A program made the translations under genes and the position numbers. DNA of 64,000 nucleotides from positions 7,877 to 71,876 of the forward strand of contig CAYFVP010000126.1 in the NCBI GenBank assembly GCA_964346655.1. Reading direction: 5' to 3'. The stretch is from an uncultured Thermoplasmatales archaeon (GTDB lineage: Archaea > Thermoplasmatota > E2 > DHVEG-1). The notes beneath the pieces are model-generated. The model did not search any database and had not been told where the DNA came from. It saw nothing but the letters and a program-made list of their open reading frames with translations. Below, in pieces: positions 8,838 through 27,663 of this stretch; positions within the stretch are counted from its first letter, which is position 1, and every line of letters starts with the position of its first letter.

Positions 8838-8876
8838 ACTTATTTCCCCCTATTTTATTACTTTTTATTATATGTT

Positions 8877-9326: not shown

Positions 9327-9366
9327 GCTTTTTACCTCCCAGTTATCGCAATAAAATATAACTAAT

Positions 9367-10503
9367 TTATCTCATCTCCCTTCCAATTATGAGCTGTAAA
9401 ATCTCAGATGTCCCACCACCATACAATAAAAATCTAGCATCACGAAAGAAACGTTGCATAGGAAATTCTTCTGCTATTCCATAAGCTCCATATATTCGGG
9501 TCCCTTCGTCAACAACACTGTTTGCCATTTCAGAGGCAAACAATTTCGCCATAGATGCCTCTTTCATACATGACTTTTTTTGATCTATAAGCCACGCAGC
9601 ATAATAGACCAATAAACGTGCAGCTTCAAGCTCTGTTGCCATTTTCCCCAATTTCATTCTTATAGCCTGAAATTTTCCAATAGGTCGTCCAAACTGTTTA
9701 CGTTCCTGCGAATATTTTATACATGCGTCAAGTGCTCCTCGGGCAAGTCCGATACTTAATGCACCAGTCATAACCCTTATCTCTGCAAGAATCTCCTGGA
9801 GCTGCGGGTAACCTTCTCCATCTTTTCCCAACATATTGTTTAAAGGTATTTTACACTCCTCAAATGCAATCTCGGCTATTGATCCGCCTTGGACAGATAT
9901 CTTATCAATTTTTTTACCTATTGAAAAACCTGGAGTCCCTTTTTCTACCAAAAAGAAATTTACACCTTTTAAGCCTTTACTTTTATCAGTATAGGCAAGA
10001 ACCGTAAAAAAGTCGGCTACAGGAGCATTAGTGATCCATGTTTTAGTTCCATTTAAAATATAACTATCTTTTTCCTTTTTCGCGGCAGTTTGTATTGCTT
10101 CAAGGTCTGTTCCAGCACCAGGTTCTGTTAATGCAAAAGCTGCAATCTTATCACCTCTTATTGCAGGAATTAAAAGCTGTTGCTTGTGGTCTTTGTTTCC
10201 GAATCTGTAGATAAAATTTGTACCCATAAGCGATTGCATAGCAGTAAGCATGGCAAGACTCAACCATCCTCGAGCAAGTTCCTCACATAAAATACAAAAC
10301 ATTACTGTGTTTGTATCTGTACCACCATATTTGGCTGGATAGCGAAGACCAAAATAACCAAGTTCTCCTGCTCTTTTAAATAATGAAGATGGAAACTCAC
10401 CCTTTTTTTCAAGTTCATCTACAAATGGTATTACTTCTTTTTCTATAAAAGCCGCAACTGTTTTTCGAAATAATTCCTCCTCCCCAGTTAGCGAAAAATC
10501 CAT
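9367..10503 (-). CDS. Acyl-CoA dehydrogenase
   Basis: 378 aa; ACAD family layout throughout, 'ALTEPGAGTDL', C-terminal 'YGGGTSEI'. Confidence 0.9.
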   Translation of the reverse strand: MDFSLTGEEELFRKTVAAFIEKEVIPFVDELEKKGEFPSSLFKRAGELGYFGLRYPAKYGGTDTNTVMFCILCEELARGWLSLAMLTAMQSLMGTNFIYRFGNKDHKQQLLIPAIRGDKIAAFALTEPGAGTDLEAIQTAAKKEKDSYILNGTKTWITNAPVADFFTVLAYTDKSKGLKGVNFFLVEKGTPGFSIGKKIDKISVQGGSIAEIAFEECKIPLNNMLGKDGEGYPQLQEILAEIRVMTGALSIGLARGALDACIKYSQERKQFGRPIGKFQAIRMKLGKMATELEAARLLVYYAAWLIDQKKSCMKEASMAKLFASEMANSVVDEGTRIYGAYGIAEEFPMQRFFRDARFLLYGGGTSEILQLIIGREMR

Positions 10504-12816: not shown

Positions 12817-14552
12817 AGGAAGAGAAAATCGATAAAATATTGGCTTCTGTATATCAGCGTAGGTTCAAATCCATTACAGAAGAGATGAGCATTGCTCTGA
12901 CAAAAACAACTCGTTCACCAATACTCTGCGAAGCAAAAGATTTTGTTACAGGTCTCTACGATGCTAGAGGAAAAATGCTTGAACAAACTGAAAACCTACC
13001 AATTCTGTCCTTTTCTTTAGGTCCAGTATGTGAATACATTGTCAAATACTTTGGCAAAGAAATCTATCCCGGAGACATCATATTCCACAACGATGTATTT
13101 TCTATGGGCAATCAAAACAATGATGTCGCTGTGTACAAACCCATATTTTACAATAATAAATTGATTGCATGGTCTGCTTGTAAGGGTCATCAAGCCGATA
13201 TTGGTGGAGCAGTTGCTGGAGGATACAATCCTAATGCTACAGAAGTGTGGCAGGAAGCATTAAGAATACCACCTATAAAGGTTTACGAGAAAGGCAAATT
13301 GAGAAAGGACGTGTGGGATCTAATATTTGCAAACATCAGGTTTGATATTGTAGCAGAGGATATGCGGGCAGAGATTGGAAGTTGTGTAGTAGGTGAAAGA
13401 GGGATTTTAAAACTAGTTGAAAAATACGGTAGAAAAAATTTTGAAATGCATAAAAATTATCTCTTCGACTCTACAAATAAGATGATGAAGGCAGAGATAA
13501 GAACAATCCCAAACGGTACATATAAAGGTGAAGCTACCGTCTATTATGACGGAAAAACACCTGGTTCAAAGTATAAGATTAGGGTAAAAATTATTGTAAA
13601 AGATGAAGATATCACATTCGATTATTCTGAAACAGATTCTCAAACAACTGGCTTTGTAAATGGCACGTATACATCTAGTGCATCAGCCACAATATTAACC
13701 TTTCTGCAGATGGTCAACCCTGATATACCTCACAACGATGGTATGATAAGGCCTATAAAAATCATCATACCAGAGGGTACAATCCTCAACGCAAAATATC
13801 CTGCAGCAACCACATTTGGAAACCATCTTTGTCCACCAAATGCTGATGCAATAATAAGGGCTCTATCTAAGGCTATACCTGAGAGAGTTACAGCAGGTTG
13901 GAATCAACTACTGTGCTATCTCACAACAGGATATGATACAAGGAAAAAGGATAAGTACGTTGACATTGGTTTCTTAGGTCTTAAAGGTGGTTCTGGTGGT
14001 ACACACGGTGTAGATGGTTATGACCATATAGGTATGATCGATGCCTCTGGAGGAGTACTTGACCAGGATTATGAGATGTTCGAACAACAAACACCTCATT
14101 TACTGTTAAAACACGAATATTGGACTGATTCTGCAGGCGCCGGGCAATGGAGAGGAGGTCTTGGAATTGAAACCAAGTTTAAGATTGGTGGAGAAAATAC
14201 AAAGATTGTAGTCTTCGGAGATGGGGACATAGAACCCAGTTTCGGTCTTTTCAAAGGTAAAAATGGGACTTTAAACAAAATTGTTCTTACGTTTCCAGAT
14301 GGTAGATTCTATAAAACTTCAAGCAAAGATCTCATTGAAGATGTACCTGCAGGTACCATTTTATTTCAACAAGCTGGGGGTGGGGGAGGATATGGAGATC
14401 CATACCTCCGACCCATAGAAAAAGTTCAAGAAGAAGTAAGAAACGGAATAGTCTCAGTAGAAAAATCTAAAAGTGATTATGGTATTGCCATCGACCCAGA
14501 TACATATAAAATTGATTATAATAAAACAAATAGCTTAAGGGGGAAAACTTGA
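12813..14552 (+). CDS. Hydantoinase B / oxoprolinase family (HyuB)
   Basis: 579 aa; family-typical N-terminus 'ILASVYQRRFKSITEEMSIALTKTTRSPILCEAKDFVTGL'; ATGA coupling to HyuA. Confidence 0.85.
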   Translation: MKEEKIDKILASVYQRRFKSITEEMSIALTKTTRSPILCEAKDFVTGLYDARGKMLEQTENLPILSFSLGPVCEYIVKYFGKEIYPGDIIFHNDVFSMGNQNNDVAVYKPIFYNNKLIAWSACKGHQADIGGAVAGGYNPNATEVWQEALRIPPIKVYEKGKLRKDVWDLIFANIRFDIVAEDMRAEIGSCVVGERGILKLVEKYGRKNFEMHKNYLFDSTNKMMKAEIRTIPNGTYKGEATVYYDGKTPGSKYKIRVKIIVKDEDITFDYSETDSQTTGFVNGTYTSSASATILTFLQMVNPDIPHNDGMIRPIKIIIPEGTILNAKYPAATTFGNHLCPPNADAIIRALSKAIPERVTAGWNQLLCYLTTGYDTRKKDKYVDIGFLGLKGGSGGTHGVDGYDHIGMIDASGGVLDQDYEMFEQQTPHLLLKHEYWTDSAGAGQWRGGLGIETKFKIGGENTKIVVFGDGDIEPSFGLFKGKNGTLNKIVLTFPDGRFYKTSSKDLIEDVPAGTILFQQAGGGGGYGDPYLRPIEKVQEEVRNGIVSVEKSKSDYGIAIDPDTYKIDYNKTNSLRGKT

Positions 14553-16534
14553 TGAGTCGTAACTCTAAGTGGGATTATAGCAAACTTCCAGGTGGAAAAA
14601 AGTATTCGAATTTATTCAAACCCATTAAAATCGGCAAATTCACTGTACCAAATCGTATAAAATATGCGGCAACTGAAGATAATCTAAACGCTCGTGATGG
14701 TTTTGTTACCGATGCCGGTGTGGAGTACCTGCGACTGCGTGCACGTGGTGTAGTAGGTGGGATTTGTACAATGCAGGGTGTCTACATGGACCCCGGAAGA
14801 TTTGGCCAAGGTTATGTTGGTCAAGCAGCAGCCTGGGATGATAAGTTTATACCTGGTCTAAAACGTCTTGCTGATGTTATACACGATGAGGGGGCTGTAT
14901 CTAATTATCAATTAATGCATTGTGGTCGGGTCGGCGGTGTAGAAACACCAGTATGCGTAGGCCCATCAAAAATCCCACAGCGACTTCGAGTGTTTCGACC
15001 TGTTAAAGAAATGACAAAGAACGACATAAAGAAGTGTATCCAAGAGCATACTGATGCTGCACGGCGCGGTATAGAAGCAGGTTTTCAGATGATGGAAATC
15101 TCTGGAATTGTGGGTTATTTAATATCTAATTTTCTCTCTTCCTATACAAATCGTAGAACCGATGATTATGGTGGTGATATAGAGGGAAGATGCACGTTTA
15201 TGGTAGAAACTATTCATGCGGTGCGAGAGGCTATTGGACCTGATATCCCACTTATTATTAGACTCTGTGCTGAAGAATTATTAAATGATGTTGGTGGAAA
15301 TACTCCAGAAGAGAGTATGGTTACATACAAAAAAGCTGAGGAAGCAGGTATCGATTGTTTAAGTGTCACACAAGGCTGGCAGGAATCTATTATACCAGTA
15401 ATTTCACGTGATATTCCTCAGGGCTCATGGCTATATAATGCAAAACGTGCAAAAGAAACAGTCAAAATACCCATATCTATGGCTTACAGGTTATTTACTC
15501 CTGATATACCTGATAAGGCAATTGCTGATGGAATTTTAGATATTTGGGAGATGTGCCGACCAATGATTGCTGATCCATTAATGCCAAAGAAGGTATTAGA
15601 GGGCCGTGAACAGGAGATACGACCATGTGTAGCATGCAACATGTGTTTGGCCCGTTTGTTTCGGGATGCACCCATGACTTGCTATGTTAACCCAGTATGT
15701 GCACACGAAGCTGATCCAGATTGGCAAGTTACTCCTACAACAATGCAAAAAAATGTGATGATTGTGGGTAGCGGTCCAGCAGGGCTTGAATGTGCCTATA
15801 TTGCAGCCCAGCGTGGCCATGAGGTACATGTTTACGATTCTACTAAAACATTAGGTGGTCAGATAATACCTGCGTCAAAGGCACCATATGGTGATGACGA
15901 GCTATATGGAATGATAGATTATCATAAGACAATGTGTAAAAAAGCAGGTGTAAATTTTCATTTAGGAACAATCGTTACACCTGAATTGATAGATGAAGAA
16001 TTTCCAGATGTTGTGGTTTTAGCTGCAGGTTCTGAGTTTATTAAAGGTGATGCCCCAGGTTTTGATAGACCTAATGTAATATGTGCAACCGATGTTTTGG
16101 AAGATAAAGCAAAAGTTGGTAACAAGGTCGTTGTTTGGGGTGGTAAAAAACCAGGTATAGGTGTAGCATTATTTCTTGCAGAACGTGGTAAAAAGGTAAC
16201 TTTAATCAGCAGGGAACGCAAGGTTGGAAAAGATGTAAATCCATCTTATATCTGGAGATACATTAAAAAATTAAACGATAAACGCGTTACAACATACAAA
16301 GAATGCGATCTTGATGAGATTACTGATACAGGAGTTATTGTAAAGAATCACTATGGTACAAAGATCCCCGTTCAAGCAGATACTGTTATTTATGCTGAGC
16401 GTAAGCCCAGACAAGAGTTAAAAGACGTTGTAAAAGAACTTAATATCGAACTTCATATAATTGGCGATGCTTTAGTCCCACGTGCATTATCTAACGCGCT
16501 ACACGATGGCTATCGTACCGGAATACGGTTATAA
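14549..16534 (+). CDS. Old-yellow-enzyme-type NADH:flavin oxidoreductase fused to FAD/NAD(P) domain (2,4-dienoyl-CoA reductase / enoate reductase-like)
   Basis: 661 aa; OYE TIM-barrel N-terminal ~380 aa; C-terminal 'MIVGSGPAGLECAYIAAQRGHEVHVYD' dinucleotide-binding motif. Confidence 0.85.
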   Translation: MMSRNSKWDYSKLPGGKKYSNLFKPIKIGKFTVPNRIKYAATEDNLNARDGFVTDAGVEYLRLRARGVVGGICTMQGVYMDPGRFGQGYVGQAAAWDDKFIPGLKRLADVIHDEGAVSNYQLMHCGRVGGVETPVCVGPSKIPQRLRVFRPVKEMTKNDIKKCIQEHTDAARRGIEAGFQMMEISGIVGYLISNFLSSYTNRRTDDYGGDIEGRCTFMVETIHAVREAIGPDIPLIIRLCAEELLNDVGGNTPEESMVTYKKAEEAGIDCLSVTQGWQESIIPVISRDIPQGSWLYNAKRAKETVKIPISMAYRLFTPDIPDKAIADGILDIWEMCRPMIADPLMPKKVLEGREQEIRPCVACNMCLARLFRDAPMTCYVNPVCAHEADPDWQVTPTTMQKNVMIVGSGPAGLECAYIAAQRGHEVHVYDSTKTLGGQIIPASKAPYGDDELYGMIDYHKTMCKKAGVNFHLGTIVTPELIDEEFPDVVVLAAGSEFIKGDAPGFDRPNVICATDVLEDKAKVGNKVVVWGGKKPGIGVALFLAERGKKVTLISRERKVGKDVNPSYIWRYIKKLNDKRVTTYKECDLDEITDTGVIVKNHYGTKIPVQADTVIYAERKPRQELKDVVKELNIELHIIGDALVPRALSNALHDGYRTGIRL

Positions 16535-16548: not shown

Positions 16549-17127
16549 ATGCAAGTTGACCCTGAAAAAGAAATTAGAAAACTCATGAAAAAGTTTGAAA
16601 CCTTACAGAATATTAACAGAGCTACATGGTATGAATGGCGCCAGGCCGCAATTGAATGCGCCCAACCAAAGTTCAAACCATTAGATTTAGTACTTAAGGC
16701 ATGGGAAATAGTTGGTCATGATACTGCAAAGGCATATTTCCATATGCTTGATGTTTCAAAACCAACATTTCTTGAAGATATTGCTAAATGTATTGTAATG
16801 AGTTCTGCTATGATGGGTGAAACAGCAAAGGTAATAAAGGGTGAAAATGAAAACGAGTTTTTTGTCCAATGGGATCGTTGTCCATGGCCTGAATTTGCTC
16901 GAAGGTACAATGCACCCATGGAGGAGGATGTATTGGGATGTGACAAATGGTTCCAGACAGTGATTGAGGATATCAACCAACTCTTTAATACTAAAGTTAA
17001 GCTAGAAACTCAAAAAGCGATCCCGCGTGGCGATGGATGTTGTATCAGACGGTTAACTATTGAACCAACCGATAGCATGATTAAACACAAGGGAGCAAAA
17101 CAGGTATTAGGAGATATTGATTTATAG
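16549..17127 (+). CDS. Hypothetical Cys-rich protein in the hydantoinase operon
   Basis: 192 aa; SD 'aaggagg' upstream; conserved-looking Cys/His ('CPWP', 'GCDKW', 'GCCIRR'). Confidence 0.4.
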   Translation: MQVDPEKEIRKLMKKFETLQNINRATWYEWRQAAIECAQPKFKPLDLVLKAWEIVGHDTAKAYFHMLDVSKPTFLEDIAKCIVMSSAMMGETAKVIKGENENEFFVQWDRCPWPEFARRYNAPMEEDVLGCDKWFQTVIEDINQLFNTKVKLETQKAIPRGDGCCIRRLTIEPTDSMIKHKGAKQVLGDIDL

Positions 17128-17129: not shown

Positions 17130-17339
17130 GTGTATAAAATGGTAGTAGAAATTGATGAAAAGGCCTGTAAGCTTTGCGGTGGATATAACGAGCCATTATG
17201 TGTTGATAAATGCCCGGATTCTGCAATAAATTTACGTGGGAATCGTATTGAGGTAACAGAATTTCTTTGCGAGGATTGTAATGAATGTGGTTTCATATGT
17301 CCTGATAAAGCAATAAAGATAAAGGTAGTGACATTCTGA
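17130..17339 (+). CDS. Small 2x[4Fe-4S] ferredoxin
   Basis: 69 aa; 'CKLCGGYNEPLCVDKCP' and 'CEDCNECGFICP' cluster motifs. Confidence 0.7.
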   Translation: MYKMVVEIDEKACKLCGGYNEPLCVDKCPDSAINLRGNRIEVTEFLCEDCNECGFICPDKAIKIKVVTF

Positions 17340-17358: not shown

Positions 17359-18474
17359 TTATGGCCCTTCACATAAAGCAGCAACTTCAGATAAATCATA
17401 TATTTTTATAGGGATTTTATTTTTTAAGGCAGTGCGCCTAAAATTTAGATAGCATGAGGGACAACATGTTACTAAGCCTTCGACTCCGAGAGGTAATATG
17501 TCTCTTGTAAGCATTGTATTTGCAATATTCATAGCCATTTTATAATCTAATGATAAGATGCCTCCTCCACCTCCACAGCATCTAGAAAACTCTCTTATAT
17601 GTTGCATTTCTGCAAAATTAAGGCCCTCAATAGACTTGAGAACCTTGCGTGGAGCATCATAGACCTTTGAGTGTCTACCCAGTGAACATGGATCATGATA
17701 TGTAAGAGAAATTGATTTCTTAAGCTTAAATCCATTATTCATTTTTTTGCTTAATATCTGGGATATATGAAGTATTTCAATATCGGTAAAATTAACATCT
17801 AGTATATCTGGGTAAAGCCTCGTGAAGGCATTATAACAACCTGAGCATGAGGTTACTAATCTCTTAATGTTTGCTTCATTCAACACATTACGTACTTTAA
17901 CTGCAATAGCCCTTGCCTCATCAAATAAACCCAAACTGATCAAAGGTTCACCGCAACACGGTTCGCTGTTTAATATTTTGTAATCCAAATCTAATTTTTT
18001 TAATACCTCTCCAGCGGCATCTGCAAGATTAGGTGCCATAATTGATGGAGTACATCCTACCCAATAAAGTAAATCAACATCTGAAGATTGTTGGTTATCA
18101 CCCAATTTCTCATTGATCCAAGTTTCTTTGGTTCTTGTCCGTGATTGGTAAGGGCTTCCAAATTTTTTAATAGCTTTGCTAAGAGTATGAACATTTTCTG
18201 GTGCAGCTGCGTTTTTTAGAGCTAAGGTTCGTAGAGCCATAACCAATTTTGGAATCTCAAGCCCTTCAATACAAAGTTCTCTACACCGATAGCATTGTGT
18301 ACACAACCATGGATATTTGCTTAAGAAATCTTTATCTTCATATAAATCCAGTTGGAGGTGTCTAACTACCTTTCGAATATTGAAATCACTTGCTTCTATG
18401 CTTGGACAGGATGCAGTACAAGTGCCACATTGTTCACATGCCCTAATGATATCCTTGAACTCTTCAGTAATCAT
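17359..18474 (-). CDS. HdrD-like protein (two [4Fe-4S] motifs + two CCG domains; heterodisulfide reductase D / GlpC / GlcF family)
   Basis: 371 aa; 'CEQCGTCTASCP', 'CTQCYRCRELC', 'EPCCGEP', 'SRCCGGGGG'. Confidence 0.75.
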   Translation of the reverse strand: MITEEFKDIIRACEQCGTCTASCPSIEASDFNIRKVVRHLQLDLYEDKDFLSKYPWLCTQCYRCRELCIEGLEIPKLVMALRTLALKNAAAPENVHTLSKAIKKFGSPYQSRTRTKETWINEKLGDNQQSSDVDLLYWVGCTPSIMAPNLADAAGEVLKKLDLDYKILNSEPCCGEPLISLGLFDEARAIAVKVRNVLNEANIKRLVTSCSGCYNAFTRLYPDILDVNFTDIEILHISQILSKKMNNGFKLKKSISLTYHDPCSLGRHSKVYDAPRKVLKSIEGLNFAEMQHIREFSRCCGGGGGILSLDYKMAMNIANTMLTRDILPLGVEGLVTCCPSCYLNFRRTALKNKIPIKIYDLSEVAALCEGP

Positions 18475-18476
18475 TC

Positions 18477-20558
18477 TTATCTTCCTATTTTGAGCTCTTC
18501 AACCATATTCTTTACAGTAGTAACAAATTTTGGACCATCTGCTGCTGAAAGCCACACATCCCAAATTTTACTTGTATCTATATTTTTTTTGCTCAAATTC
18601 TTCTTCAAACGTTCAAGTCTATCCCTACACCTGTAGTTTCCGGTAATATAATGGCATGTGGGAAATTCGCAGCCAGCTACCAACACACCCGCGACATTAA
18701 GGTTAAGTGCTCTTTCAATAAATGCAGCATCTACACGTCCAGCACACATTACTCTAATTATCTGTATATTTGTGGGATACTCAAATCTACTCACACCAGC
18801 GATATCAACTGCCCCAAGTGCACACCAGTGACAACAAAATGCTATGATTTTTTTATCAGGTAAACTCTCCAATGCTGCATCCACTTGCGCAAGTATTTGT
18901 TCATCGGTATAATGAATGATATTTATCGCATCTTTCGGACACTCTGCAGCACAAGTTCCACAACCTTTACATAATGCTTTGATAACATTTGGAGCCTGTT
19001 TCTTATCGACAAACTCGATAGCCCCATATGCACAAGTTTTTACACAGAGACCACATGAATTGCATAATTTTTTATTGATATCTGCAACTATTCCTTCGGC
19101 TTCAACATACCCTTTTTTCATCGGGATTCCTGCCCTCATTGCAGCTCCTAAAGATTCTTCGATGGTTTCCTTTATACTCTTGGGATTGCGGGCGCAGCCA
19201 CACAGATATATCCCATCCGAAGCAAAGTCAAGAGGCCTTAACTTGATATGGGCCTCCTGGAAGAATCTATCAGGACTTGCAGAGATCTTAAGTAATCCTT
19301 TAAGTTTCTCAACAGTTGAATCCCCTTGAAAACCAGTAGTTAACACAATCAGATCTGGGTTGATTTTAAACTCTTTATCAATTAAAATATCATGTGATTT
19401 TAATGTAAGTTTCTCATTTTTTTCATTTCCTATAACTTCCACTTGTTTATCATCAGGGTATCTAATAAGTTTGATATCGTATTTCCTGATCGCCTCTTTG
19501 AAATAGTTAACATTTTCTCCCCCAATATTTATATCTCTATAAAAAATATACACTTTTGTATCCTTATTTAGCTCTTTTATTGTCACAGCGTTTTTAATAG
19601 CTGCAAGACATCCAATGTTACAACATCCACGTTCCTCATTCCTAGAATTTACACAGTTAATTATAGCTACATTTTTGACTTTACCAAGAGTTTTTGACCT
19701 TAATTTTTCCTCAAGTTGTAATTGAGTAATAACATTAGGGTATTTTCCATACCCAATTAATCCAATAGGTTCTATTTCATTCATCCCAGTTGCAGCTATT
19801 ATTGTTGAAATTTCAAGCTCCTTTAAAGTTTTATTATCTTTTGATTTTCCGTTGTTTACCAATTTGACCTTATAATTTCCAATATATCCTTCTACATCAT
19901 CAAGCTCTGTATTAGTATGCACTTTAATATTGTCATGTTGAGTTATTTTATTAATATGGGCATCAACAATATCTTTGGCATCTTTATCAAAGGGGGCCAG
20001 GGTATCTAAGTTATTCAAAATTCCACCAAGCTTGCCTGTTTTTTCGATTAGTTCTACCTTAAATCCTTGATCTGCAACTGCCATAGCAGCGGTCATGCCT
20101 GCTAGACCGCCACCAATAATTAAACAATTTTTTCCGACTGAAATCCGAATATCTTCAGCAGGCTCAAGAAGAATAGCCTTTGCTACACCCATTTTTATAA
20201 GATTCTTTGCCTTCTCGGTTGCAAGCTTAGGATTATTTTTATGCACCCAGGAGCTTTGTTCTCTGATACTCACAAATTCTAATAAATACTGGTTCAAACC
20301 TGCTTCTTTAAGTGTTGATTTAAAGGTTGGTTCATGAGTTCGGGGTGTACAACAAGCTACAACAATTCTATTGAGTTTATGCTCTGCAATAATTTCTTTA
20401 ATTTTTGACAAGAAATCTACTGAGCATATCCATTTCCCTTCTTCAGCAATAGCTACGCCATCAAGGCGGCTAGCATACTTTACAACATCGGTGACATTTA
20501 CCACCCCTCCAATATTTGTTCCACAATGACATACAAAAACACCCACTCTTACCTTCAT
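18477..20558 (-). CDS. HdrA-like flavoprotein with C-terminally fused MvhD domain
   Basis: 693 aa; HdrA N-terminal-domain motif 'VGVFVCHCGTNIGG'; 'LIIGGGLAGMTAAMA' FAD motif; ferredoxin 'CNSCGLCVKTCAYG...CKGCGTCAAECP'; MvhD signature 'IIAFCCHWCALGAVDIAGVSRFEYPTNIQIIRVMCAGRVD'. Confidence 0.85.
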   Translation of the reverse strand: MKVRVGVFVCHCGTNIGGVVNVTDVVKYASRLDGVAIAEEGKWICSVDFLSKIKEIIAEHKLNRIVVACCTPRTHEPTFKSTLKEAGLNQYLLEFVSIREQSSWVHKNNPKLATEKAKNLIKMGVAKAILLEPAEDIRISVGKNCLIIGGGLAGMTAAMAVADQGFKVELIEKTGKLGGILNNLDTLAPFDKDAKDIVDAHINKITQHDNIKVHTNTELDDVEGYIGNYKVKLVNNGKSKDNKTLKELEISTIIAATGMNEIEPIGLIGYGKYPNVITQLQLEEKLRSKTLGKVKNVAIINCVNSRNEERGCCNIGCLAAIKNAVTIKELNKDTKVYIFYRDINIGGENVNYFKEAIRKYDIKLIRYPDDKQVEVIGNEKNEKLTLKSHDILIDKEFKINPDLIVLTTGFQGDSTVEKLKGLLKISASPDRFFQEAHIKLRPLDFASDGIYLCGCARNPKSIKETIEESLGAAMRAGIPMKKGYVEAEGIVADINKKLCNSCGLCVKTCAYGAIEFVDKKQAPNVIKALCKGCGTCAAECPKDAINIIHYTDEQILAQVDAALESLPDKKIIAFCCHWCALGAVDIAGVSRFEYPTNIQIIRVMCAGRVDAAFIERALNLNVAGVLVAGCEFPTCHYITGNYRCRDRLERLKKNLSKKNIDTSKIWDVWLSAADGPKFVTTVKNMVEELKIGR

Positions 20559-20559
20559 C

Positions 20560-21921
20560 TTAACTCCTCTGCAATGCTGCTTTCATGCTTGCTCCAATTG
20601 CTTGACTAACAGACTCAGAAATATCTAGTGGTCCTGTTGCACCTCCACAAACATATATCCTTCTTACATTTGTTTCAAATGGTGCATTTACTGGATCTTT
20701 CCCCTTAATAAACCCATACTCATCAAGCTCAACATTTAATATCTTGGATAATCTTTTATTGTATTTACAAGGAATTAGGCCTGCAGAGAGAACAAGGAGG
20801 TCAATTTCTAAATCTTTAACTTCACCTTTGTCTATATCTTCAAACCTTATCGTTAAATTCTTGGTTTCAGGAGACTCGAATACATCGGAAGGCTTACCCT
20901 TTATATAGCTAACACCTAGGCTCTTAGCTCTTCTATAAAACTTGTAAAAACCCTTTCCATAGGTCTGTAAATGATTATGGAAAACGTAGGCTTTCACATT
21001 GGATTCATGCTCCATAGTTACAATGGTCTGCTTTGTTGCAATCATGCAACAAACCTTTGAGCAGTAAGGTATAGGCCCAGGGGTGCTTACCCTTTTCTCA
21101 CGACCAACGCACTGCACCCATGCAATCCTTTTAGCATGAGCTCCATCTGATGGTCTAACTATTTCCCCTTGTGTTGGTCCGCCTGCGTTCATCAATCTTT
21201 CAAATTGAAGGTTTGTAATTACATTATCATAGATGCCATAACCATATAGACCATGGGGTGGCTCAAATGATTCAATACCAGAAGCTACAATTATGCTATT
21301 AACTTCAAGATCATACATCTCTTCCCTCTGCCAGAGCATTATAGCATCGCCACCTTCCTCCTTACATGCCTTGACGCATAGAGCTATTGGGCACTCACGA
21401 CATTGTATACAGTCAATAATACATCCGCCCACACATGCACCATCATCCTTCATTTTACCATAACGACAGTCAGGGTGAATAAGATAATAATTTGGCACAG
21501 CCTGAGGGAATGGAATATAGATTAACTTTCTAAGTCCACCGATCTTATTATCGATCTCATCGGGAACGCTGACAGGACATGCTTCGGTACATTTCCCACA
21601 GCCTTTACATTTCTCTTCGTCAATAAAACGAGGCTTTTTCACTATTCTAACCTTAAAAATACCAGCATTATCATTTACTCTTCGAATTTCGCAATTTGTC
21701 AATAAATGTATATTTGGATTTTTTTGAATATCATACATTTTTGGAGCTTCTATACAAATTGAACAATCGTTTGTTGGAAATGTTTTATCAAGTCTAGCCA
21801 TAAGTCCACCGATCGTAGGGAAATTATCAACCAAGTATACTCTAAAGTCATAATCAGCTAAATTCAACGCTGCTTCGATTCCGGCAATACCTCCCCCAAT
21901 TATTAAAACGGATTTAGACAT
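20560..21921 (-). CDS. Second HdrA-family FAD/Fe-S flavoprotein (lacks the N-terminal HdrA domain)
   Basis: 453 aa; 'VLIIGGGIAGIEAALNLAD', 'TFPTNDCSICI', 'CKGCGKCTEACP', C-terminal 'YVCGGATGP'. Confidence 0.8.
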   Translation of the reverse strand: MSKSVLIIGGGIAGIEAALNLADYDFRVYLVDNFPTIGGLMARLDKTFPTNDCSICIEAPKMYDIQKNPNIHLLTNCEIRRVNDNAGIFKVRIVKKPRFIDEEKCKGCGKCTEACPVSVPDEIDNKIGGLRKLIYIPFPQAVPNYYLIHPDCRYGKMKDDGACVGGCIIDCIQCRECPIALCVKACKEEGGDAIMLWQREEMYDLEVNSIIVASGIESFEPPHGLYGYGIYDNVITNLQFERLMNAGGPTQGEIVRPSDGAHAKRIAWVQCVGREKRVSTPGPIPYCSKVCCMIATKQTIVTMEHESNVKAYVFHNHLQTYGKGFYKFYRRAKSLGVSYIKGKPSDVFESPETKNLTIRFEDIDKGEVKDLEIDLLVLSAGLIPCKYNKRLSKILNVELDEYGFIKGKDPVNAPFETNVRRIYVCGGATGPLDISESVSQAIGASMKAALQRS

Positions 21922-21975
21922 TTTTAAACCTTTTTAACTGTTATAGGATAATAGTTAACATTTTGAGTTATAAAC

Positions 21976-23154
21976 CTAAATAATACCTTTCTTTTTTAGG
22001 TCGACTTCATCATATCCAAGGATACTGTAAATCTCTTTATTATGTTCACCGAATCTTGGAGGAAAGCATAAATCTGGCCTTTCTATTGGCTTTACTGGTG
22101 GAGGAGCAAGAATCACTTCCAGATTGGTTTTAGGATCTTTAGTGTATAGCAACTTTGAGCTAAGATAAGAATCCTCTAACACATCTTTAATCGTATTGAC
22201 CTCAGAAACAGGTATTTTTGCTTTCTTAAACATTTTAAGAATTTCTGATTTATGCTTTTTACTCGTTACAGAATTTATATCATCATTCAATTGATCACCA
22301 TGAGCTATTCTATCATTGTTTGTAAAATATTCTGATTTATTTAAAAATTCAAAATCTGGGAATTCTATCATACTTTTCCATTGAGCATCATTACCAACAG
22401 CAATTGAAATATAACCTTCCATAGTCTTATACACCCCAACTGGTGAAAAGTTAGGGTGGAAATTGCCGGTTTTTGGTATATTTATTCCTAGACTAACTAA
22501 TGGTATTTGTAGAGTTAAAAGAGACATGGCACAATCAAGCATTGAGATGTCGATTCTTTTACCCTTTCCGGTCTTTTCTCGGAGATATAAAGCCTTCATA
22601 ATCTCACTATAAGCTTGGTTACCCGCCTCAATATCAACAATAGAAACACCAAACCTTAATGGTGGTGTGTTTGGTTCTCCATTTACGTCCATAATCCCAG
22701 AATAGGCTTGAATCATAGGATCATAAGCAGGTTCAGATCGTTCAGGTCCAAAACCTGAAATTTCAACCCAAATTATATCACTTTTAATAGAGCTTATCTT
22801 TTCATAATCAATCCCTAATCTTTTGTAGTTTTCAGGTTTTTGACTGCATGCAAATATATCTACATCTAATTTATCAATAAGCTCACAAAGGATTTCTTGA
22901 CCTTTGGGGGTACCAAGATTTAAAGATATCCCTTTTTTACCTGCATTTACAGACATAAAATATGCATTCATACCTTCTTCGTCTATTACCTTTTTACCAA
23001 CCAAGCGGTTAGGATCACCCCATAATGATTCTATTCTGATTACATCTGCTCCTTCCACTGCTAATCTCCAAGTGCAATAAGGTAAAGCTGCTGCCTGCTC
23101 AACACTTAATACCCTTACATCTTTTAAAAAACTATTCGAATCTAATGTCATCAT
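21976..23154 (-). CDS. Family III CoA-transferase (CaiB/BaiF/Frc family)
   Basis: 392 aa; N-terminal 'VRVLSVEQAAALPYCTWRLAVEGADVIRIE' characteristic of family III. Confidence 0.85.
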   Translation of the reverse strand: MMTLDSNSFLKDVRVLSVEQAAALPYCTWRLAVEGADVIRIESLWGDPNRLVGKKVIDEEGMNAYFMSVNAGKKGISLNLGTPKGQEILCELIDKLDVDIFACSQKPENYKRLGIDYEKISSIKSDIIWVEISGFGPERSEPAYDPMIQAYSGIMDVNGEPNTPPLRFGVSIVDIEAGNQAYSEIMKALYLREKTGKGKRIDISMLDCAMSLLTLQIPLVSLGINIPKTGNFHPNFSPVGVYKTMEGYISIAVGNDAQWKSMIEFPDFEFLNKSEYFTNNDRIAHGDQLNDDINSVTSKKHKSEILKMFKKAKIPVSEVNTIKDVLEDSYLSSKLLYTKDPKTNLEVILAPPPVKPIERPDLCFPPRFGEHNKEIYSILGYDEVDLKKKGII

Positions 23155-23420
23155 CCACCTCCAGCTATATGAGAAATCAGAATCTCATCACCGGGATTTA
23201 GAATGTATGATGTTTCTTTTACTTCGGAGTTGACTGTGATTAAAGCACTCCTATGACCTAAATCTTCTCCGACGGCTTTCTTAAATTTCCTACCATATTT
23301 TAAATAAAGCATATCCATCAAATCTTGAAGAGTCATACCTTCGTTTATGGGAAATACTTCCTTTCTTTTCTGAGTTATCTGTGAAAAAACCATAAGATAC
23401 TTAACAGTAACATGTGTCAT
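23151..23420 (-). CDS. MoaD/ThiS-like ubiquitin-fold protein (C-terminal GG)
   Basis: 89 aa ending '...ISHIAGGG'; MoaD-like genes accompany AOR genes in described aor operons. Confidence 0.55.
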   Translation of the reverse strand: MTHVTVKYLMVFSQITQKRKEVFPINEGMTLQDLMDMLYLKYGRKFKKAVGEDLGHRSALITVNSEVKETSYILNPGDEILISHIAGGG

Positions 23421-23644
23421 TTCTTTCGCCTGCCAGAATTTTGAGTTTTCAAAATGGCTTTTCTAACAAAAGAAAAAGAGCATTTACCTCGGCTTATTTG
23501 CAAACCCGCGCATTTATAACAAATACCTCTATTAAAATCAAAGTGATCTCTGCATGTTGGTTTTTTACATTTATTACAGATATAAGCTCTTACGCCTGTA
23601 TGTGACAAATCAATTCTTCTTTTGCATGAACTGCATCTTGGCAT
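23417..23644 (-). CDS. Small zinc-finger protein (AN1-like Cys/His spacing)
   Basis: 75 aa; 'CSSCKRRID...CNKCKKPTCRDHFDFNRGICYKCAG'. Confidence 0.45.
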   Translation of the reverse strand: MPRCSSCKRRIDLSHTGVRAYICNKCKKPTCRDHFDFNRGICYKCAGLQISRGKCSFSFVRKAILKTQNSGRRKK

Positions 23645-23659
23645 GGAAATACCTATATT

Positions 23660-25639
23660 TTATTTTACTAGTTCTTTTTTATTCAAATTATCTAATACAT
23701 CCAACATATCCAACTTAATAAGCTCACTTCTTTTAATAAGGCCAGTTTTTATATCCCATCCCCTGCTGTTATAATATTCATCAAGCATCTTTTCCAATTG
23801 TTTCTGTGCAAAGATTTGACCCTTTCCAGGACCCTTTGGAAGGGGTTCTGAAAACTTTTTGGGAAGGCTATCGTCCTTCCTCCGTATACCAAACCTGGTA
23901 TTCAAAGCTCTTTCAATGTTTACGATTCTATGTCCAATATGTAATAATTTATTATAATCTATTTTCATACCTGTTGCTGCGCTAATCCAATCATGATATT
24001 TTATGGAATTTATCTCCTCTTTTTTATGTAATTTTCCTAATAGCTCTGGAATAGGATACTGAGCATAATATGAAGCATGCATAAATCTACAACTCCCTAT
24101 TGAATCGGTAATTGCAGCTAAATTTTCATGCCATAGAACCATGTTAACCTTTCCGTCATAACTCATAAGATCACATGCTCCTTCAGATCCAAACAATTCT
24201 TTACCGATTTCTGGAGGCATCTTAATCATCTCAAAAACAACATGCGTTCTAAGATGATCTGAACCACGACTAGAAATAGCATAAGTGAAGCCAAAGCCTT
24301 TTGCAACTCTTGGATCACAGGCTATCGTATCCAAACCCTTAATTGATGTTGTGTAATCAACTGCATTTTTTCCTATCTTTAATGCAGCTTTATAGGATCC
24401 AAGAGCTCCAAGAGCACCCAATTTATCCTGTTTATTTGCAATCCTATGTACCATCTCCACCATTGCATCAGCGTTACCAAACCTTAAATCTAATTTATCA
24501 ACATCTTCTATTATCCCTTCCTCTATAAGTTCCATAAACGTTGCTATTGTGTTTCCGCATGATATACAGTCCATACCATAGTCATTTGATAGTGCATAGG
24601 CATGAAAAACAGCTTCTAAATCTGAAATACCGCATTTGGAACCTAAAGCAGCAATACCTTCATATTCTATGTTTCCTCTTGTTCCAGCATATTTTCCTGA
24701 TTCGATTCGTCCAAATCTTTTGCACCTATTTGGGCATGACATACAGGCACGTCCTCCAGGTATTGGACTCGAACGCGTAGAGTATTTGTCTCGGAATTCT
24801 TCACCTGATATTGAGTCGGCTCCTTCAAAGGTGCTCTCTCTAAAATTTCTAGTCGGAAGCCATCCTTGTGCATTACCCCAATTAACACATATTGGTGTTC
24901 CAAGTGCCTGATGCTCTCCAGCAAGAAAACCAGGATCATTTAATATTCCTAACCACCCATCTTGCACAATTTCTAAATATCTTTCAGGATCTGCAACTTT
25001 AAGTTCACCTGAACCACTAACTGTAATAGCTTTTAGATTCTTTGAAGCCATTACTGTACCTGTTCCAGTTCGACCTGCAGCATCCCACAAATTAAATATT
25101 ATTGAACAGAAAAGCACACCGTTTTCTGCAGCAGGTCCGATAGCAGCAACTTTCGTATCATATCCTCTTTGTTCCTCCTGAAGGGCCAAGGTTGTTTCAA
25201 AAATTCCTTCTCCCCATAAATGATTTGCATCTTTAAGCTCAATATGTTTATCCTCTATGCATAAAAAAACTGGTTTTGGGGCTCTGCCCTTGATAATAAT
25301 ATTATCATAACCGGCATATTTGAGTTCAGAACCCCAGTCTGAACCAACATTTGAGTTTCCATAGATGTCTGTTAATGGTGATTTTGTCGCTACATTTACA
25401 CGACCCGTAGTTGGACCCAATAGGCCAGTAATTGGTCCAGTGGAAATGCATAAAACATTATCACCATGTAAAGGGTTTATATTTGGTTTAACCTCATCAA
25501 AAAGAATCTTTGCATCAGCACCTCGTCCACCTAAATATTTCTCGATCCGCTGTTTAGACTGTGTTTCTTTTATTATTTTACCTCTTGTTAAGTCAACCCT
25601 CAATGTCTTACCTGCATAACCACAATAGTCGAAAGTCAC
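23660..25639 (-). CDS. Tungsten-type aldehyde:ferredoxin oxidoreductase (AOR family)
   Basis: 659 aa; AOR N-terminal 'YAGKTLRVDLTRGKI...EKYLGGRGADAKILFDEV' and family-wide similarity. Confidence 0.9.
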   Translation of the reverse strand: MTFDYCGYAGKTLRVDLTRGKIIKETQSKQRIEKYLGGRGADAKILFDEVKPNINPLHGDNVLCISTGPITGLLGPTTGRVNVATKSPLTDIYGNSNVGSDWGSELKYAGYDNIIIKGRAPKPVFLCIEDKHIELKDANHLWGEGIFETTLALQEEQRGYDTKVAAIGPAAENGVLFCSIIFNLWDAAGRTGTGTVMASKNLKAITVSGSGELKVADPERYLEIVQDGWLGILNDPGFLAGEHQALGTPICVNWGNAQGWLPTRNFRESTFEGADSISGEEFRDKYSTRSSPIPGGRACMSCPNRCKRFGRIESGKYAGTRGNIEYEGIAALGSKCGISDLEAVFHAYALSNDYGMDCISCGNTIATFMELIEEGIIEDVDKLDLRFGNADAMVEMVHRIANKQDKLGALGALGSYKAALKIGKNAVDYTTSIKGLDTIACDPRVAKGFGFTYAISSRGSDHLRTHVVFEMIKMPPEIGKELFGSEGACDLMSYDGKVNMVLWHENLAAITDSIGSCRFMHASYYAQYPIPELLGKLHKKEEINSIKYHDWISAATGMKIDYNKLLHIGHRIVNIERALNTRFGIRRKDDSLPKKFSEPLPKGPGKGQIFAQKQLEKMLDEYYNSRGWDIKTGLIKRSELIKLDMLDVLDNLNKKELVK

Positions 25640-26178
25640 TTTTTATTTCCTCCTACAGTGGCGATAGAACGAGTTGATTTAGGGAGGTTCAATAAAAAGT
25701 GTTGGATTCTATTTGCACTTTTACGCCTTGAAAAATCTTCAATTTCTTGGTGATACTCAATTCCACCAGTTACACACCATTTTACACATTCCGGTGCTCC
25801 ATCGCATAAATCGCATTTATAGAATATCTGACGATTTTCATTATAATGGATGGCGCCAAAGGGACAGATTACCATACATTGTTTACATCCGATACAAAAA
25901 TCTGGGTTGAGTATTATCGCGTTAGTTTCACTGTTCCTTCTTAACGCTCTTGTTGGACATGCAGTGATACAAGGGGCATGTTCACATTGTTCACACCCAA
26001 TAGGGATATCAAGTCCTTCTTCATCAATACGAACTATTTTGATCCTTGATTTCGATGGGGCAAAAACACCTTCCTTATGAAAGCTGCAAGCCAATTCACA
26101 AGCTCTACAACCAGTGCAATTCTCATAGTTGAAAATAAGTTTTCCCATTGTTAAATTCAACCGCCCCATGGTAACCAT
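25636..26178 (-). CDS. Polyferredoxin (AorA-like, ~4 [4Fe-4S]) electron-transfer subunit
   Basis: 180 aa; four CxxCxxCxxxCP-type motifs. Confidence 0.8.
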   Translation of the reverse strand: MVTMGRLNLTMGKLIFNYENCTGCRACELACSFHKEGVFAPSKSRIKIVRIDEEGLDIPIGCEQCEHAPCITACPTRALRRNSETNAIILNPDFCIGCKQCMVICPFGAIHYNENRQIFYKCDLCDGAPECVKWCVTGGIEYHQEIEDFSRRKSANRIQHFLLNLPKSTRSIATVGGNKK

Positions 26179-26412: not shown

Positions 26413-27663
26413 ATGAATGTTCTGGTTCTAGGTGCAGGTGGAGCAGGGATAAGTGCAGTTCAAGCAATAAGAAAGGTGAATAGTAAGATAAAAATAAATT
26501 TGGTATCAAAAGAAGAATGCATGCCATATTCACTCTGTGGACTGCCCGATTTTTTATCTGGAAAAATCTCAATAAAAGTTCTAAACCGTTTAGATGCTGA
26601 TTTCTTAGTTAATAATGAAATCAATTTAATATCTGGGAGAGAGGCTATAAAAGTGGATACTACAAGGAAAATTGTACATTTTAAGAGTAATTTTACAAAC
26701 GAAGAAAATGAGATGCTTGAATTCGACAAACTCTTGATTGCTGTTGGTTCAAAACCAATTGTTCCCTCTATTTTCGGATTAAATAAAAAACAAGTATACA
26801 TTGTTTCGAATTTGGAAAGCTGTAAAAGTATTATAAAAGGATTAAAAAAAGCTACAAAAATTGCAGTTATTGGTGGTGGATTCATAGGTATTGAATGTGC
26901 TCAGGCTCTGAAACAAAGGAAAAAGGAAGTCTTTGTTATCGAAAGTCTTGATCGTATTCTTGCAAATATATTTGATAAGGAGATATCAACTGTCGCCCAA
27001 GAGATGCTAGAGAGGCTAGGTATTAATTTTATTCTGGGAAATCAGGTCAGGGGAATAATTGGGAATAACGTAGTTAAGGGCCTTGAACTTACAAATGGAA
27101 CAATAGATTGTAATATGGTACTCTTGACTGTTGGTGTTAGACCAAATATAGATATTGTTAAAGATACAACAATTAGATTTAACCAGGGTATAATTGTAAA
27201 TGAATTCATGGAATCAAACGTTAAAGATATCTTTGCTGCTGGCGATGTCGCTGAATCCTTTGATTGTATTTTTGGAGAACCTGGTTTAAAAGCAACGTGG
27301 TCAAATGCTGTAGAACAAGGATATGTGGCAGGACTGAATATTGCTGGGAAAAGGTGTAAATATCTTGGTTTTCAGTCATACAATGTCATCCATATCGATG
27401 ATGTACCATTCTTAAGCATGGGCAATGTAACCAATTTGCCTAAAAACTGTTCAGAATTGATGTCGAAAAGTATAGACTCTACACGAAAAGTGTTTATTCA
27501 AAATGATAGAATTTTGGGTATTGAGTTCTATGGTGATCTGACAAACTCTGGACTTCTATTTTCTCTAATAAATAAGGGATCCGATATAAAACGATATAAT
27601 AAGAAGATCCTCTCAAACTACTTTCAATACCGTTGGAATAAAAATGTGAAGATAAAAATGTGA
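26413..27663 (+). CDS. FAD-dependent pyridine nucleotide-disulfide oxidoreductase (NADH oxidase / CoA-disulfide reductase family)
   Basis: 416 aa; 'VLVLGAGGAGISA' and 'IAVIGGGFIGIECA' dinucleotide motifs; single Cys in 'PYSLCGLP' like Nox/CoADR Cys42. Confidence 0.8.
   Translation: MNVLVLGAGGAGISAVQAIRKVNSKIKINLVSKEECMPYSLCGLPDFLSGKISIKVLNRLDADFLVNNEINLISGREAIKVDTTRKIVHFKSNFTNEENEMLEFDKLLIAVGSKPIVPSIFGLNKKQVYIVSNLESCKSIIKGLKKATKIAVIGGGFIGIECAQALKQRKKEVFVIESLDRILANIFDKEISTVAQEMLERLGINFILGNQVRGIIGNNVVKGLELTNGTIDCNMVLLTVGVRPNIDIVKDTTIRFNQGIIVNEFMESNVKDIFAAGDVAESFDCIFGEPGLKATWSNAVEQGYVAGLNIAGKRCKYLGFQSYNVIHIDDVPFLSMGNVTNLPKNCSELMSKSIDSTRKVFIQNDRILGIEFYGDLTNSGLLFSLINKGSDIKRYNKKILSNYFQYRWNKNVKIKM

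Follow-up and report, generated by a model that had tools for sequence, protein, structure and literature searches.

A tungsten aldehyde oxidoreductase unit and a BamDEF-like Hdr triad in one eight-gene run of a Thermoplasmatota archaeon

The stretch analysed here, a 64,000-nt window of a contig from an uncultured Thermoplasmatales archaeon, carries eight minus-strand open reading frames (ORFs) at 17359-26178 that place a tungsten-type aldehyde:ferredoxin oxidoreductase (AOR) and its partners next to two HdrA-family flavoproteins and an HdrD. The run falls into two units. The first (unit 1) consists of a four-cluster polyferredoxin, AOR, a 75-aa Cys-rich protein, a MoaD-like protein and a family III CoA-transferase; the second (unit 2, the triad) consists of a short HdrA, an HdrA-MvhD fusion and HdrD, with an architecture like that of BamE, BamF and BamD. 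Both units belong to known kinds, and their placement in one apparent operon is lineage-specific. On balance, we read the run as a lineage-specific join of separately conserved units, in which the triad would mainly serve an old-yellow-enzyme (OYE) flavoprotein and its ferredoxin, encoded beside HdrD, and AOR would feed the ferredoxin pool. The run lies inside a catabolic island (6063-27663) of this Thermoplasmatota archaeon.

The two units of the eight-gene run

Read along the minus strand, the run opens with the gene of an AorA/WorS-type polyferredoxin (25636..26178, 180 aa; Fer4_11, four [4Fe-4S] motifs), which overlaps by 4 nt (GTGA) with that of AOR (WorL/AorB type, 23660..25639, 659 aa; AFOR_N and AFOR_C). 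After 15 nt comes the gene of a Cys/His-rich protein (23417..23644, 75 aa), followed through successive ATGA overlaps of 4 nt each by those of a MoaD/ThiS-like sulfur carrier, the equivalent of AorD/WorX (23151..23420, 89 aa), and of a family III CoA-transferase (21976..23154, 392 aa). An AT-rich spacer of 54 nt (21922..21975) parts this AOR/CoA-transferase unit from the genes of short HdrA (20560..21921, 453 aa; a thioredoxin-reductase-like FAD core with an inserted ferredoxin domain), HdrA-MvhD (18477..20558, 693 aa; HdrA plus FlpD/MvhD) and HdrD (17359..18474, 371 aa; Fer4_8 and two complete CCG motifs), the last three being separated by 1 nt and 2 nt, respectively. An initial annotation of this DNA had described eight minus-strand genes with tight spacing and overlaps; the ORF list and the junction read-out bear this out at the coordinates it gave, and Pfam and NCBIfam matches uphold the gene identities it assigned, including the HdrA-MvhD fusion and HdrD. 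Two other assemblies, an ENA contig (L001) and the metagenome-assembled genome (MAG) of an uncultured Thermoplasmatales archaeon (L006), keep the entire arrangement in synteny at 79–93% amino-acid identity; the MAG is the closest public relative (AOR 90% identical). The eight-gene run is therefore real and not a series of chance ORFs. The spacer contains TTTATAA, which could be an archaeal TATA box in this region of 37% GC. A scan of 17000-26600 for bacterial-type promoters and terminators gave counts at chance level (38 against 35.9 expected and 5 against 5.1, respectively) and is uninformative, since the counts equal chance and the host is archaeal. Family scans covered the larger ORFs of the window (about 120 aa and up); hydrogenase and formate dehydrogenase were not found among them, in agreement with the initial annotation. 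No tRNA was found in the window, and an Rfam scan of its whole length gave no match.

AOR matches AFOR_N (6e-71) and AFOR_C (3e-114) and, among solved structures, scores best with WorL of Acetomicrobium mobile (9mqx_D, 389 bits); the score with the Pyrococcus furiosus enzyme (1aor) is 376 bits, and that with BamB (4z3w_A) 206 bits, over the N-terminal part only. It belongs to a sharply bounded, mainly archaeal subclade, whose homologues show 54–90% identity before the values fall to 45% or less; Thermoplasmata, Methanomassiliicoccales, Nezhaarchaeales, Hecatellales, Archaeoglobi and some Planctomycetes have members of it. Four cluster ligands (C299, C302, C306 and C517) do not vary across the subclade and align with C288, C291, C295 and C494 of the P. 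furiosus enzyme (PfAOR). The active-site residues in PfAOR numbering are Thr243, Glu313, Tyr427 and His448 (PMC13328260). Equivalents of Thr243, Glu313 and His448 are conserved, whereas Tyr427 is replaced by Cys (TIACDPR; residue ~441), both in the window protein and in the subclade consensus, and the subclade has GSDH instead of GGCH. Two insertions conserved in the subclade (residues ~469–497 and ~520–553) occur in none of the solved AORs. As far as sequence can tell, the Tyr-to-Cys exchange and the insertions suggest an altered substrate specificity, or a partner surface, for example for the 75-aa protein.

The polyferredoxin, with its four Cys motifs, has AorA as its best solved relative (8c0z_C, 4.7e-36), matches WorS (9mqx_E) at 2.5e-33, and matches BamC (4z3w_E) at only 9.5e-13. 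The 75-aa protein has no Pfam or NCBIfam match; it contains eight Cys/His residues (C-x2-C ... C-x2-C-x4-C-x2-H ... C-x2-C), and a homologue with 39–87% identity lies 3' of AOR in 13 of 16 subclade loci. It is thus a putative zinc-binding accessory specific to this AOR subclade. The MoaD-like protein (ThiS 1.4e-6; TIGR01687 moaD_arch 2e-11) ends in GG and is probably used in maturation of the tungsten cofactor; aorD and aorE of the Aromatoleum aromaticum aor operon are MoaD-like genes as well (PMC6365974). For the CoA-transferase (CoA_transf_3, 7e-83), the succinate-glutarate and succinyl-CoA:mesaconate CoA-transferase families of NCBIfam come nearest, each with a score under its cut-off.

Polyferredoxin, AOR and MoaD-like protein together are of the known AorAB(D)/WorSL type, which needs no Hdr partner; AorAB(C)D-type operons function without Hdr. 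Like AorABC(DE) of A. aromaticum, a class III (N-type) tungsten-containing oxidoreductase (WOR), unit 1 combines a four-cluster AorA-like protein, an AorB-like tungsten subunit and a MoaD-like gene in one operon, and a PadH/AorC-like FAD protein is encoded nearby in the window. It differs from that system in its archaeal host, N-type WORs having been reported only in Bacteria, in the replacement of Tyr427 by Cys and in the extra 75-aa partner; the flavoprotein, too, differs in being divergently encoded, carrying a CoADR-type Cys and missing from most subclade loci. With WorABCSL of A. mobile (class IV WOR), the window shares a WorSL-type unit of the aldehyde branch and, putatively, a link to a flavin-based bifurcating module. 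In A. mobile this module is of the Bfu/HydBC type (WorABC) and not of the Hdr type, and Bfu-type WorABC subunits were not found among the larger window ORFs scanned.

In unit 2, short HdrA matches methanogen HdrA (9sfi_A, 384 bits) over residues 143–563, comprising the FAD core and the inserted ferredoxin domain, and its CCMIATKQ aligns with CCMFALKN of HdrA; the flavin-adjacent Lys is kept. HdrA-MvhD contains an N-terminal FeS domain, an FAD core, a C-terminal ferredoxin domain and a [2Fe-2S] MvhD domain (FlpD at residues 571–690, 6e-40), and scores 453 bits with HdrA (5odc_A) and 119 bits with MvhD. Its best NCBIfam match is HdrA2 (684 bits; cut-off 1100), the HdrA-MvhD fusion of Methanosarcina acetivorans HdrA2B2C2, from which the window differs in having a fused HdrD in place of the HdrB/HdrC pair. 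HdrD (CCG 2e-25; Fer4_8) joins an HdrC-like 2x[4Fe-4S] domain to two complete C...CCG...CxxC motifs; its best NCBIfam match, TfrB (176 bits), is below cut-off, and the qmoC model gives 35 bits only, in the N-terminal ferredoxin part. The pair of short HdrA and HdrA-MvhD corresponds to the QmoA/QmoB layout. Unlike QmoABC, the triad ends with a soluble HdrD and not with a membrane QmoC, and neither aprAB nor sat is present in the window. HdrABC-MvhAGD shares the HdrA FAD core with its Lys and the CCG motifs, and differs from the triad in its MvhAG hydrogenase, for which no counterpart was found among the larger window ORFs scanned.

The triad was compared with a metagenomic bam locus (L116; gene order BamB, BamC, BamD, BamE of 1033 aa, BamF), whose BamB scores 1088 bits with 4z3w_A. 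Short HdrA is 46% identical to residues 36–448 of this BamE, the HdrA part of HdrA-MvhD is 43% identical to residues 469–1029, and HdrD is 32% identical to BamD over its full length. From the identity to both BamE halves and to BamD, together with the MvhD domain, we consider the window triad a split BamDEF. In a cryo-EM preprint on class II benzoyl-CoA reductase (BCRII; 2026), BamE is described as a fused HdrA dimer whose N-terminal unit holds the bifurcating FAD, BamF/MvhD as the electron input and BamD as the high-potential exit, with electron-transfer flavoprotein (ETF) bound at the BamD clusters; the cluster chain to BamBC forms the low-potential branch, and the tungsten enzyme with its FeS subunit docks on BamE. 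It had been proposed for the window that HdrA is the flavin-based bifurcation unit, which is reasonable, as the flavin-adjacent Lys is kept and the triad mirrors BamE/F/D.

Compared as a whole, the window and BamBCDEFGHI of Geobacter metallireducens share a tungsten-pterin protein of the AOR family, an FeS protein, an HdrD-like protein, two HdrA-like FAD units and an MvhD-like adaptor, with the gene order tungsten enzyme, FeS protein, Hdr components. The differences are several: the tungsten enzyme of the window falls in the aldehyde-oxidising branch rather than being a BamB; the polyferredoxin holds four clusters instead of three; the BamE equivalent is split into two genes, with MvhD fused to the second; genes for the CoA-transferase, the MoaD-like and the 75-aa proteins are inserted; and the window-type Hdr part occurs without a tungsten enzyme in most related loci. 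The BamGHI (HydABC/Nuo-like) input module was not found among the larger window ORFs scanned. Purified and solved BamBCDEF is therefore a precedent for what the initial annotation took to be an uncharacterised arrangement; that view stands for the pairing of an aldehyde-type AOR with an Hdr module, which is undescribed. A WOR classification of 2026 lists Hdr-type subunits for benzoyl-CoA reductase only, and an aldehyde-type AOR with an Hdr module would be new.

Neighbourhoods of AOR and of the Hdr triad

To define the neighbourhoods of the two units, the AOR-subclade alignment was scanned against one genome per species and the HdrA-MvhD alignment against metagenomes; every locus was scored by tblastn for 19 island proteins, and individual homologue look-ups were added. 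AOR neighbours were counted within 10 kb at 16 subclade loci, and the Hdr loci are the 27 with an orthologous HdrA-MvhD (at least 52% identity). AOR was accompanied by the polyferredoxin at 15 of the 16 loci, by the 75-aa protein and the MoaD-like protein at 13 each, by the family III CoA-transferase at 10, by OYE and acyl-CoA mutase at 6 each, by acyl-CoA dehydrogenase (ACAD) at 5 and by the Hdr triad at only 3, namely the near-identical relatives L001 and L006 and a Planctomycetes MAG (L003). The triad was found at none of 72 outgroup AOR loci. An IorAB-like 2-oxoacid oxidoreductase, an aminotransferase and a carboxylate-reductase-like gene are other recurrent neighbours of the subclade, and mutase and ACAD adjoin it in loci of Archaeoglobus, Ferroglobus, Nezhaarchaeales, Hecatellales and Nitrososphaerota. 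In three genomes, both units are present but unlinked: in the complete Thermoplasmata genomes CP070751 and CP070739, they lie ~78 kb and ~400 kb apart, and in the Nezhaarchaeales MAG JAWAOK01, scaffold 9 (L013) carries the AOR cluster and scaffold 24 (L174) the Hdr pair. The co-location noted in the window thus recurs in 3 of 16 subclade loci and is not conserved.

The most frequent neighbour of the triad is a set of genes that the initial annotation did not consider and that abuts HdrD in the window. It encodes, on the plus strand, an OYE flavoprotein similar to 2-naphthoyl-CoA reductase (NCR) (14549..16534; Oxidored_FMN and Pyr_redox_2, with FMN, [4Fe-4S] and FAD), an ATC_hydrolase-like protein (16549..17127, 192 aa; PF14196, 1.7e-7) that is always found 3' of OYE, and a 2x[4Fe-4S] ferredoxin (17130..17339, 69 aa; Fer4_10, Cys motifs read from the sequence), whose gene lies tail to tail with hdrD, the two ends being 19 nt apart. 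At the 27 Hdr loci, short HdrA was present at 20, the ATC_hydrolase-like protein with the 69-aa ferredoxin at 12, OYE at 10, HdrD at 7 and AOR at 3. Orthologues of short HdrA and HdrA-MvhD (52–86% identity) lie beside OYE, the ATC_hydrolase-like protein and ferredoxin in L001, L003, L005, L006, L088-L094, L102, L103 and L174/L175. These loci span archaea, Planctomycetes and Deltaproteobacteria, and among them AOR is found only in L001, L003 and L006. The ATC_hydrolase-like protein is kept between OYE and ferredoxin in L003, L005, L088-L094, L102, L103 and L174; in L174, the Hdr pair is divergent from the adjoining OYE, small protein and ferredoxin genes. Taken together, the OYE-Hdr link is frequent and crosses phyla, the AOR-OYE link is seen in about four lineages, and the AOR-Hdr link in two, both with OYE.

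OYE matches NCR (6qkg) over its full length with 478 bits, shares its FMN/[4Fe-4S]/FAD layout and carries a C-x2-C-x2-C-x11-C [4Fe-4S] motif; its score with Escherichia coli 2,4-dienoyl-CoA reductase (1ps9) is 279 bits. NCR, a class III aryl-CoA reductase, takes a low-potential ferredoxin or ferredoxin-like domain as donor, its natural donor being unknown (PMC6502838). The window differs in its host, a peptide- and acid-degrading archaeon and not a naphthalene degrader. The OYE position aligned with NCR Trp459 is not Trp, and this residue was not used as a marker of ferredoxin dependence, as the alignment beside a gap is ambiguous. A full-text literature search found no description of a pairing of Hdr with OYE/dienoyl-CoA reductase; its sole match was a review of polycyclic aromatic hydrocarbon degradation that does not contain the pairing.

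Relatives of the triad vary in their third subunit and in their surroundings. Bacterial loci have the order TetR, OYE, small protein, ferredoxin, glyoxalase, short HdrA, HdrA-MvhD, and at the gene position of HdrD they encode a 583-aa Fer4_8/Fer4_20/Pyr_redox_2 (GltD/NfnB-like) NAD(P)H protein (L102, 4581-13948; also L005, L087, L089-L091, L095-L098 and L100). At the archaeal-looking locus L099 (5488-13944), genes for EtfB, a Fer4-EtfA fusion and an ACAD (53% identity to that of the window) are transcribed divergently from the triad, whose HdrD is 45% identical; this adjacency fits the BamD-ETF contact of BCRII. In L002 (5800-13155) and L166 (5541-13158), from Thermoplasmata and Methanomassiliicoccales, a long HdrA, an MvhD-Fer4 fusion, short HdrA, HdrA-MvhD and HdrD are encoded in a five-gene cluster, with neither OYE nor AOR nearby; an additional HdrA and an MvhD-Fer4 protein thus stand ahead of the triad, as noted for two Thermoplasmata. 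The two HdrA proteins are thus a constant core with exchangeable ports. Metagenome contigs L143 (1779-17764) and L158 (3200-17954) carry two to three tandem copies of short HdrA/HdrA-MvhD/HdrD-like genes, in L143 followed by the small and large subunits of a [NiFe] hydrogenase, with AOR on the other strand. AOR-type genes near the distant triads of L126, L143 and L158 were set aside as incidental; in L126, LolA/MMPL/DUF1302 transport genes part the AOR-type gene from the triad.

A member of the AOR subclade was also seen in a long co-directional run of a Methanomassiliicoccales MAG (L171, 1-15025), which comprises a BcrAD/BadFG-type activase, a ferredoxin, an 832-aa NuoG/GltD-like protein, OYE, the small protein, IorAB, an aminotransferase, the polyferredoxin, AOR, small proteins, ThiS and a family I CoA-transferase, which replaces the family III enzyme beside AOR. 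This gene run points to a place of the AOR subclade in amino-acid-derived 2-oxoacid/aldehyde metabolism.

The surrounding island and the divergent flavoprotein

Upstream of OYE lies a HyuA/HyuB pair of the ATP-dependent hydantoinase/oxoprolinase family (10720..14552, plus strand; Hydantoinase_A and Hydantoinase_B), which forms one plus-strand operon with OYE, the small protein and ferredoxin. The nearest NCBIfam models are caprolactamase CapA (688 bits) and CapB (402 bits), both below their cut-offs of 1000; the pair may feed the pathway by ATP-dependent ring opening of the lactam or oxoproline type. At 6063..10503, on the minus strand, family assignments give ACAD, a MaoC hydratase, a short-chain dehydrogenase/reductase (SDR), and the B12-binding and large subunits of a methylmalonyl-CoA-mutase-type enzyme. 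A route from lactam through amino acid, semialdehyde and dicarboxylate to glutaryl-CoA, or an aromatic amino-acid route of the Stickland type, would fit several weak NCBIfam hits and the IorAB and aminotransferase neighbours; neither was adopted, as all of these hits are below cut-off.

The island (6063-27663) has a GC content of 0.37 and a mean GC at third codon positions (GC3) of 0.27, against 0.27–0.30 and 0.18 in its flanks; a phage-type integrase is encoded at 80-1384, near the left window end, and the island proteins are 55–70% identical to those of a Planctomycetes MAG. This suggests that the island was acquired by lateral transfer. On its other side, 27687-49184 is dense in secreted or surface proteases (peptidases C25 with PKD, C10, and M14 with NosD) and holds FG-GAP/PKD and PQQ-propeller/PKD repeat proteins, consistent with a peptide-degrading lifestyle.

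Divergent from the eight-gene run, a plus-strand gene encodes an FAD/NAD(P)H flavoprotein of 416 aa (26413..27663), which NCBIfam and PDB matches place near Nox, CoADR, PadH and AorC. Its scores with the CoADR (209 bits) and PadH (206 bits) models are both below cut-off, and it matches AorC (8c0z_E) at 2.7e-34 and CoADR/Nox at 1e-43; the similarity to PadH/AorC extends over the full length. Length and C-terminus are PadH/AorC-like, yet the protein has the Cys of the CoADR/Nox type in YSLCGLP, a residue missing from the bacterial AorC-like genes found beside AORs. Homologues with more than 80% identity are found only in L001 and L006, and the gene is missing from 13 of the 16 AOR-subclade loci; in L003, a 34% identical flavoprotein gene heads the AOR operon.

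Electron flow and alternative readings

We infer the direction of electron flow, the ports, the substrates and any physical complex from the gene content, as follows. AOR would oxidise aldehydes from amino-acid or acid catabolism by way of its own four-cluster wire and charge a ferredoxin-level pool (polyferredoxin plus ferredoxin), and the CoA-transferase would activate the acid so formed for the enzymes encoded at 6063-10503 (mutase, ACAD, hydratase and SDR) and for beta-oxidation. The triad would be a BamDEF/QmoAB-style hub for flavin-based bifurcation or confurcation with three ports. In this hub, short HdrA would hold the FAD expected to bifurcate, and HdrA-MvhD would supply N- and C-terminal FeS domains and a [2Fe-2S] adaptor, its MvhD being one port. 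A ferredoxin-level port could lead from the inserted ferredoxin domain of short HdrA through the 69-aa ferredoxin to OYE, and HdrD, with two predicted non-cubane-type cluster sites, would be the high-potential port, with ETF/ACAD as the best partner candidate and a disulfide as a possible one. The main client of the triad would be the NCR-like OYE reductase with the 69-aa ferredoxin; AOR would not be an obligate subunit, and the Hdr hub and OYE would draw on the ferredoxin pool. The aldehyde/acid couple lies at or below ferredoxin potential (redox values in PMC13328260), so that aldehyde oxidation itself needs no bifurcation. This weakens the rationale of the initial annotation, which had argued for bifurcation from the low potential of that couple.

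Several observations weigh against this reading. The AOR/CoA-transferase and Hdr genes are co-directional, and no terminator-like site was found in the 54-nt spacer between them, which makes co-transcription likely. AorA/WorS filaments plug into bifurcating WorABCSL, and direct docking of the polyferredoxin to HdrA-MvhD is therefore physically plausible. L003 holds AOR, OYE and the triad within 14 kb at similar divergence (55–70% identity), as expected if the three work together, and the taxa of the AOR subclade and of the triad overlap in Thermoplasmata, Methanomassiliicoccales, Nezhaarchaeales and Planctomycetes. Since many of the Hdr loci lie on short contigs, the absence of AOR from them is weak evidence. 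Moreover, the NADPH-blocking Trp of NCR is not clearly conserved in OYE, whose need for low-potential electrons is therefore putative.

Some of these points would fit the initial proposal that polyferredoxin-AOR and the triad belong to a single dedicated complex, the Hdr-type equivalent of Bfu-type WorABCSL, in which aldehyde oxidation or acid reduction is coupled to two further redox partners through flavin-based bifurcation or confurcation. The eight co-directional genes with their overlaps and single 54-nt gap, the synteny in L001 and L006, the proximity of AOR and triad in the Planctomycetes MAG, the overlap in taxa and the docking of WorS filaments on the bifurcating core in A. mobile are all in its favour, and the gene content mirrors BamBCDEF, where the tungsten enzyme and FeS subunit dock on BamE. 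We nevertheless consider a dedicated complex unlikely: the triad is missing within 10 kb of AOR at 13 of the 16 subclade loci, AOR is missing from 24 of the 27 Hdr loci, three genomes carry the units unlinked, aldehyde oxidation can reduce ferredoxin without bifurcation (PMC13328260), and there is no NAD(P)H module either as a fusion or in the operon. The sole distant co-location, L003, has its AOR operon (AorC-like, polyferredoxin, AOR, OYE, small protein, ferredoxin, ThiS) together with OYE but separate from the Hdr operon, on which it converges.

AOR/polyferredoxin, triad and OYE/ferredoxin might also make up one system of three modules. This would be an archaeal relation of class II benzoyl-CoA reductase with the tungsten enzyme at the electron input instead of the low-potential output, and aldehyde oxidation would feed an HdrA-type bifurcating core that powers a difficult reduction by OYE and, through HdrD, a second, high-potential acceptor. 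To this arrangement, we give a rather small chance.

A module linked to ACAD and ETF is improbable. In such a module, HdrD would exchange electrons with ETF/ACAD, and either acyl-CoA oxidation would be confurcated with ferredoxin reduced by AOR or 2-oxoacid oxidoreductases, or enoyl-CoA reduction would drive ferredoxin reduction. The BCRII preprint does show ETF at the BamD clusters, the triad of L099 is divergent from EtfB, Fer4-EtfA and ACAD, and the window island has the related ACAD together with a hydratase and an SDR. However, no ETF genes were found in the window by family scans of the larger ORFs and by tblastn, ETF adjoins the triad in only 1 of the 27 Hdr loci, and the bacterial versions exchange HdrD for the GltD-like module, so the HdrD port is not universal.

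The initial annotation had also suggested the divergent flavoprotein as a thiol/disulfide partner. The triad would then be a thiol/disulfide reductase working with this CoADR-like protein or another thiol carrier, with no functional tie to AOR or OYE, and the adjacency a by-product of a horizontally assembled island, for which the composition of the island and the integrase would speak. HdrD has two intact CCG motifs, and for the flavoprotein as partner the sole supporting detail is its CoADR-type Cys; outside close relatives its gene is not conserved, OYE and Hdr genes are repeatedly found side by side across phyla, and BamD, the closest characterised analogue, passes electrons to ETF and reduces no disulfide. 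We therefore give little credence to a thiol/disulfide role. Finally, a BamB-like AOR that reduces the CoA thioester made by the CoA-transferase and is powered by the BamDEF-like module, as a minimal class II aryl/acyl-CoA reductase, would fit the parallel to BamBCDEF, the CoA-transferase gene between the two halves, the Tyr427 replacement and the two conserved insertions, but is very improbable, as AOR scores 376–389 bits with genuine AORs and 206 bits with 4z3w_A where the true BamB of L116 scores 1088 (an assignment as BamB was rejected on this ground), it keeps the equivalents of Glu313 and His448, which typify aldehyde-oxidising members, BamC has three clusters where the polyferredoxin has four, BamGHI was not found among the larger window ORFs, and most members of the subclade occur without an Hdr module.

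Hdr-type modules outside methanogens and sulfate reducers are poorly understood, and benzoyl-CoA reductase is the only tungsten enzyme known to use one. The loci compared here present a BamDEF-like module as a portable unit, in which short HdrA and HdrA-MvhD are joined by an exchangeable third subunit (HdrD or the GltD-like NAD(P)H module) and which spans Thermoplasmatota, Nezhaarchaeales, Planctomycetes and Deltaproteobacteria, and its pairing with OYE is a candidate route of low-potential electrons to NCR-like reductases. To the tungsten enzymes, the window adds an archaeal AOR subclade that differs in one active-site residue and has a small Cys-rich partner of its own. If AOR is not wired to the Hdr hub, as in the reading that we favour, the result is still a useful map of an amino-acid/acyl-CoA fermentation island. 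If it is wired to the hub, the WOR classification would gain a new class, and the system of three modules would be the first Hdr-type bifurcating WOR and a candidate for the natural donor system of NCR-type reductases.

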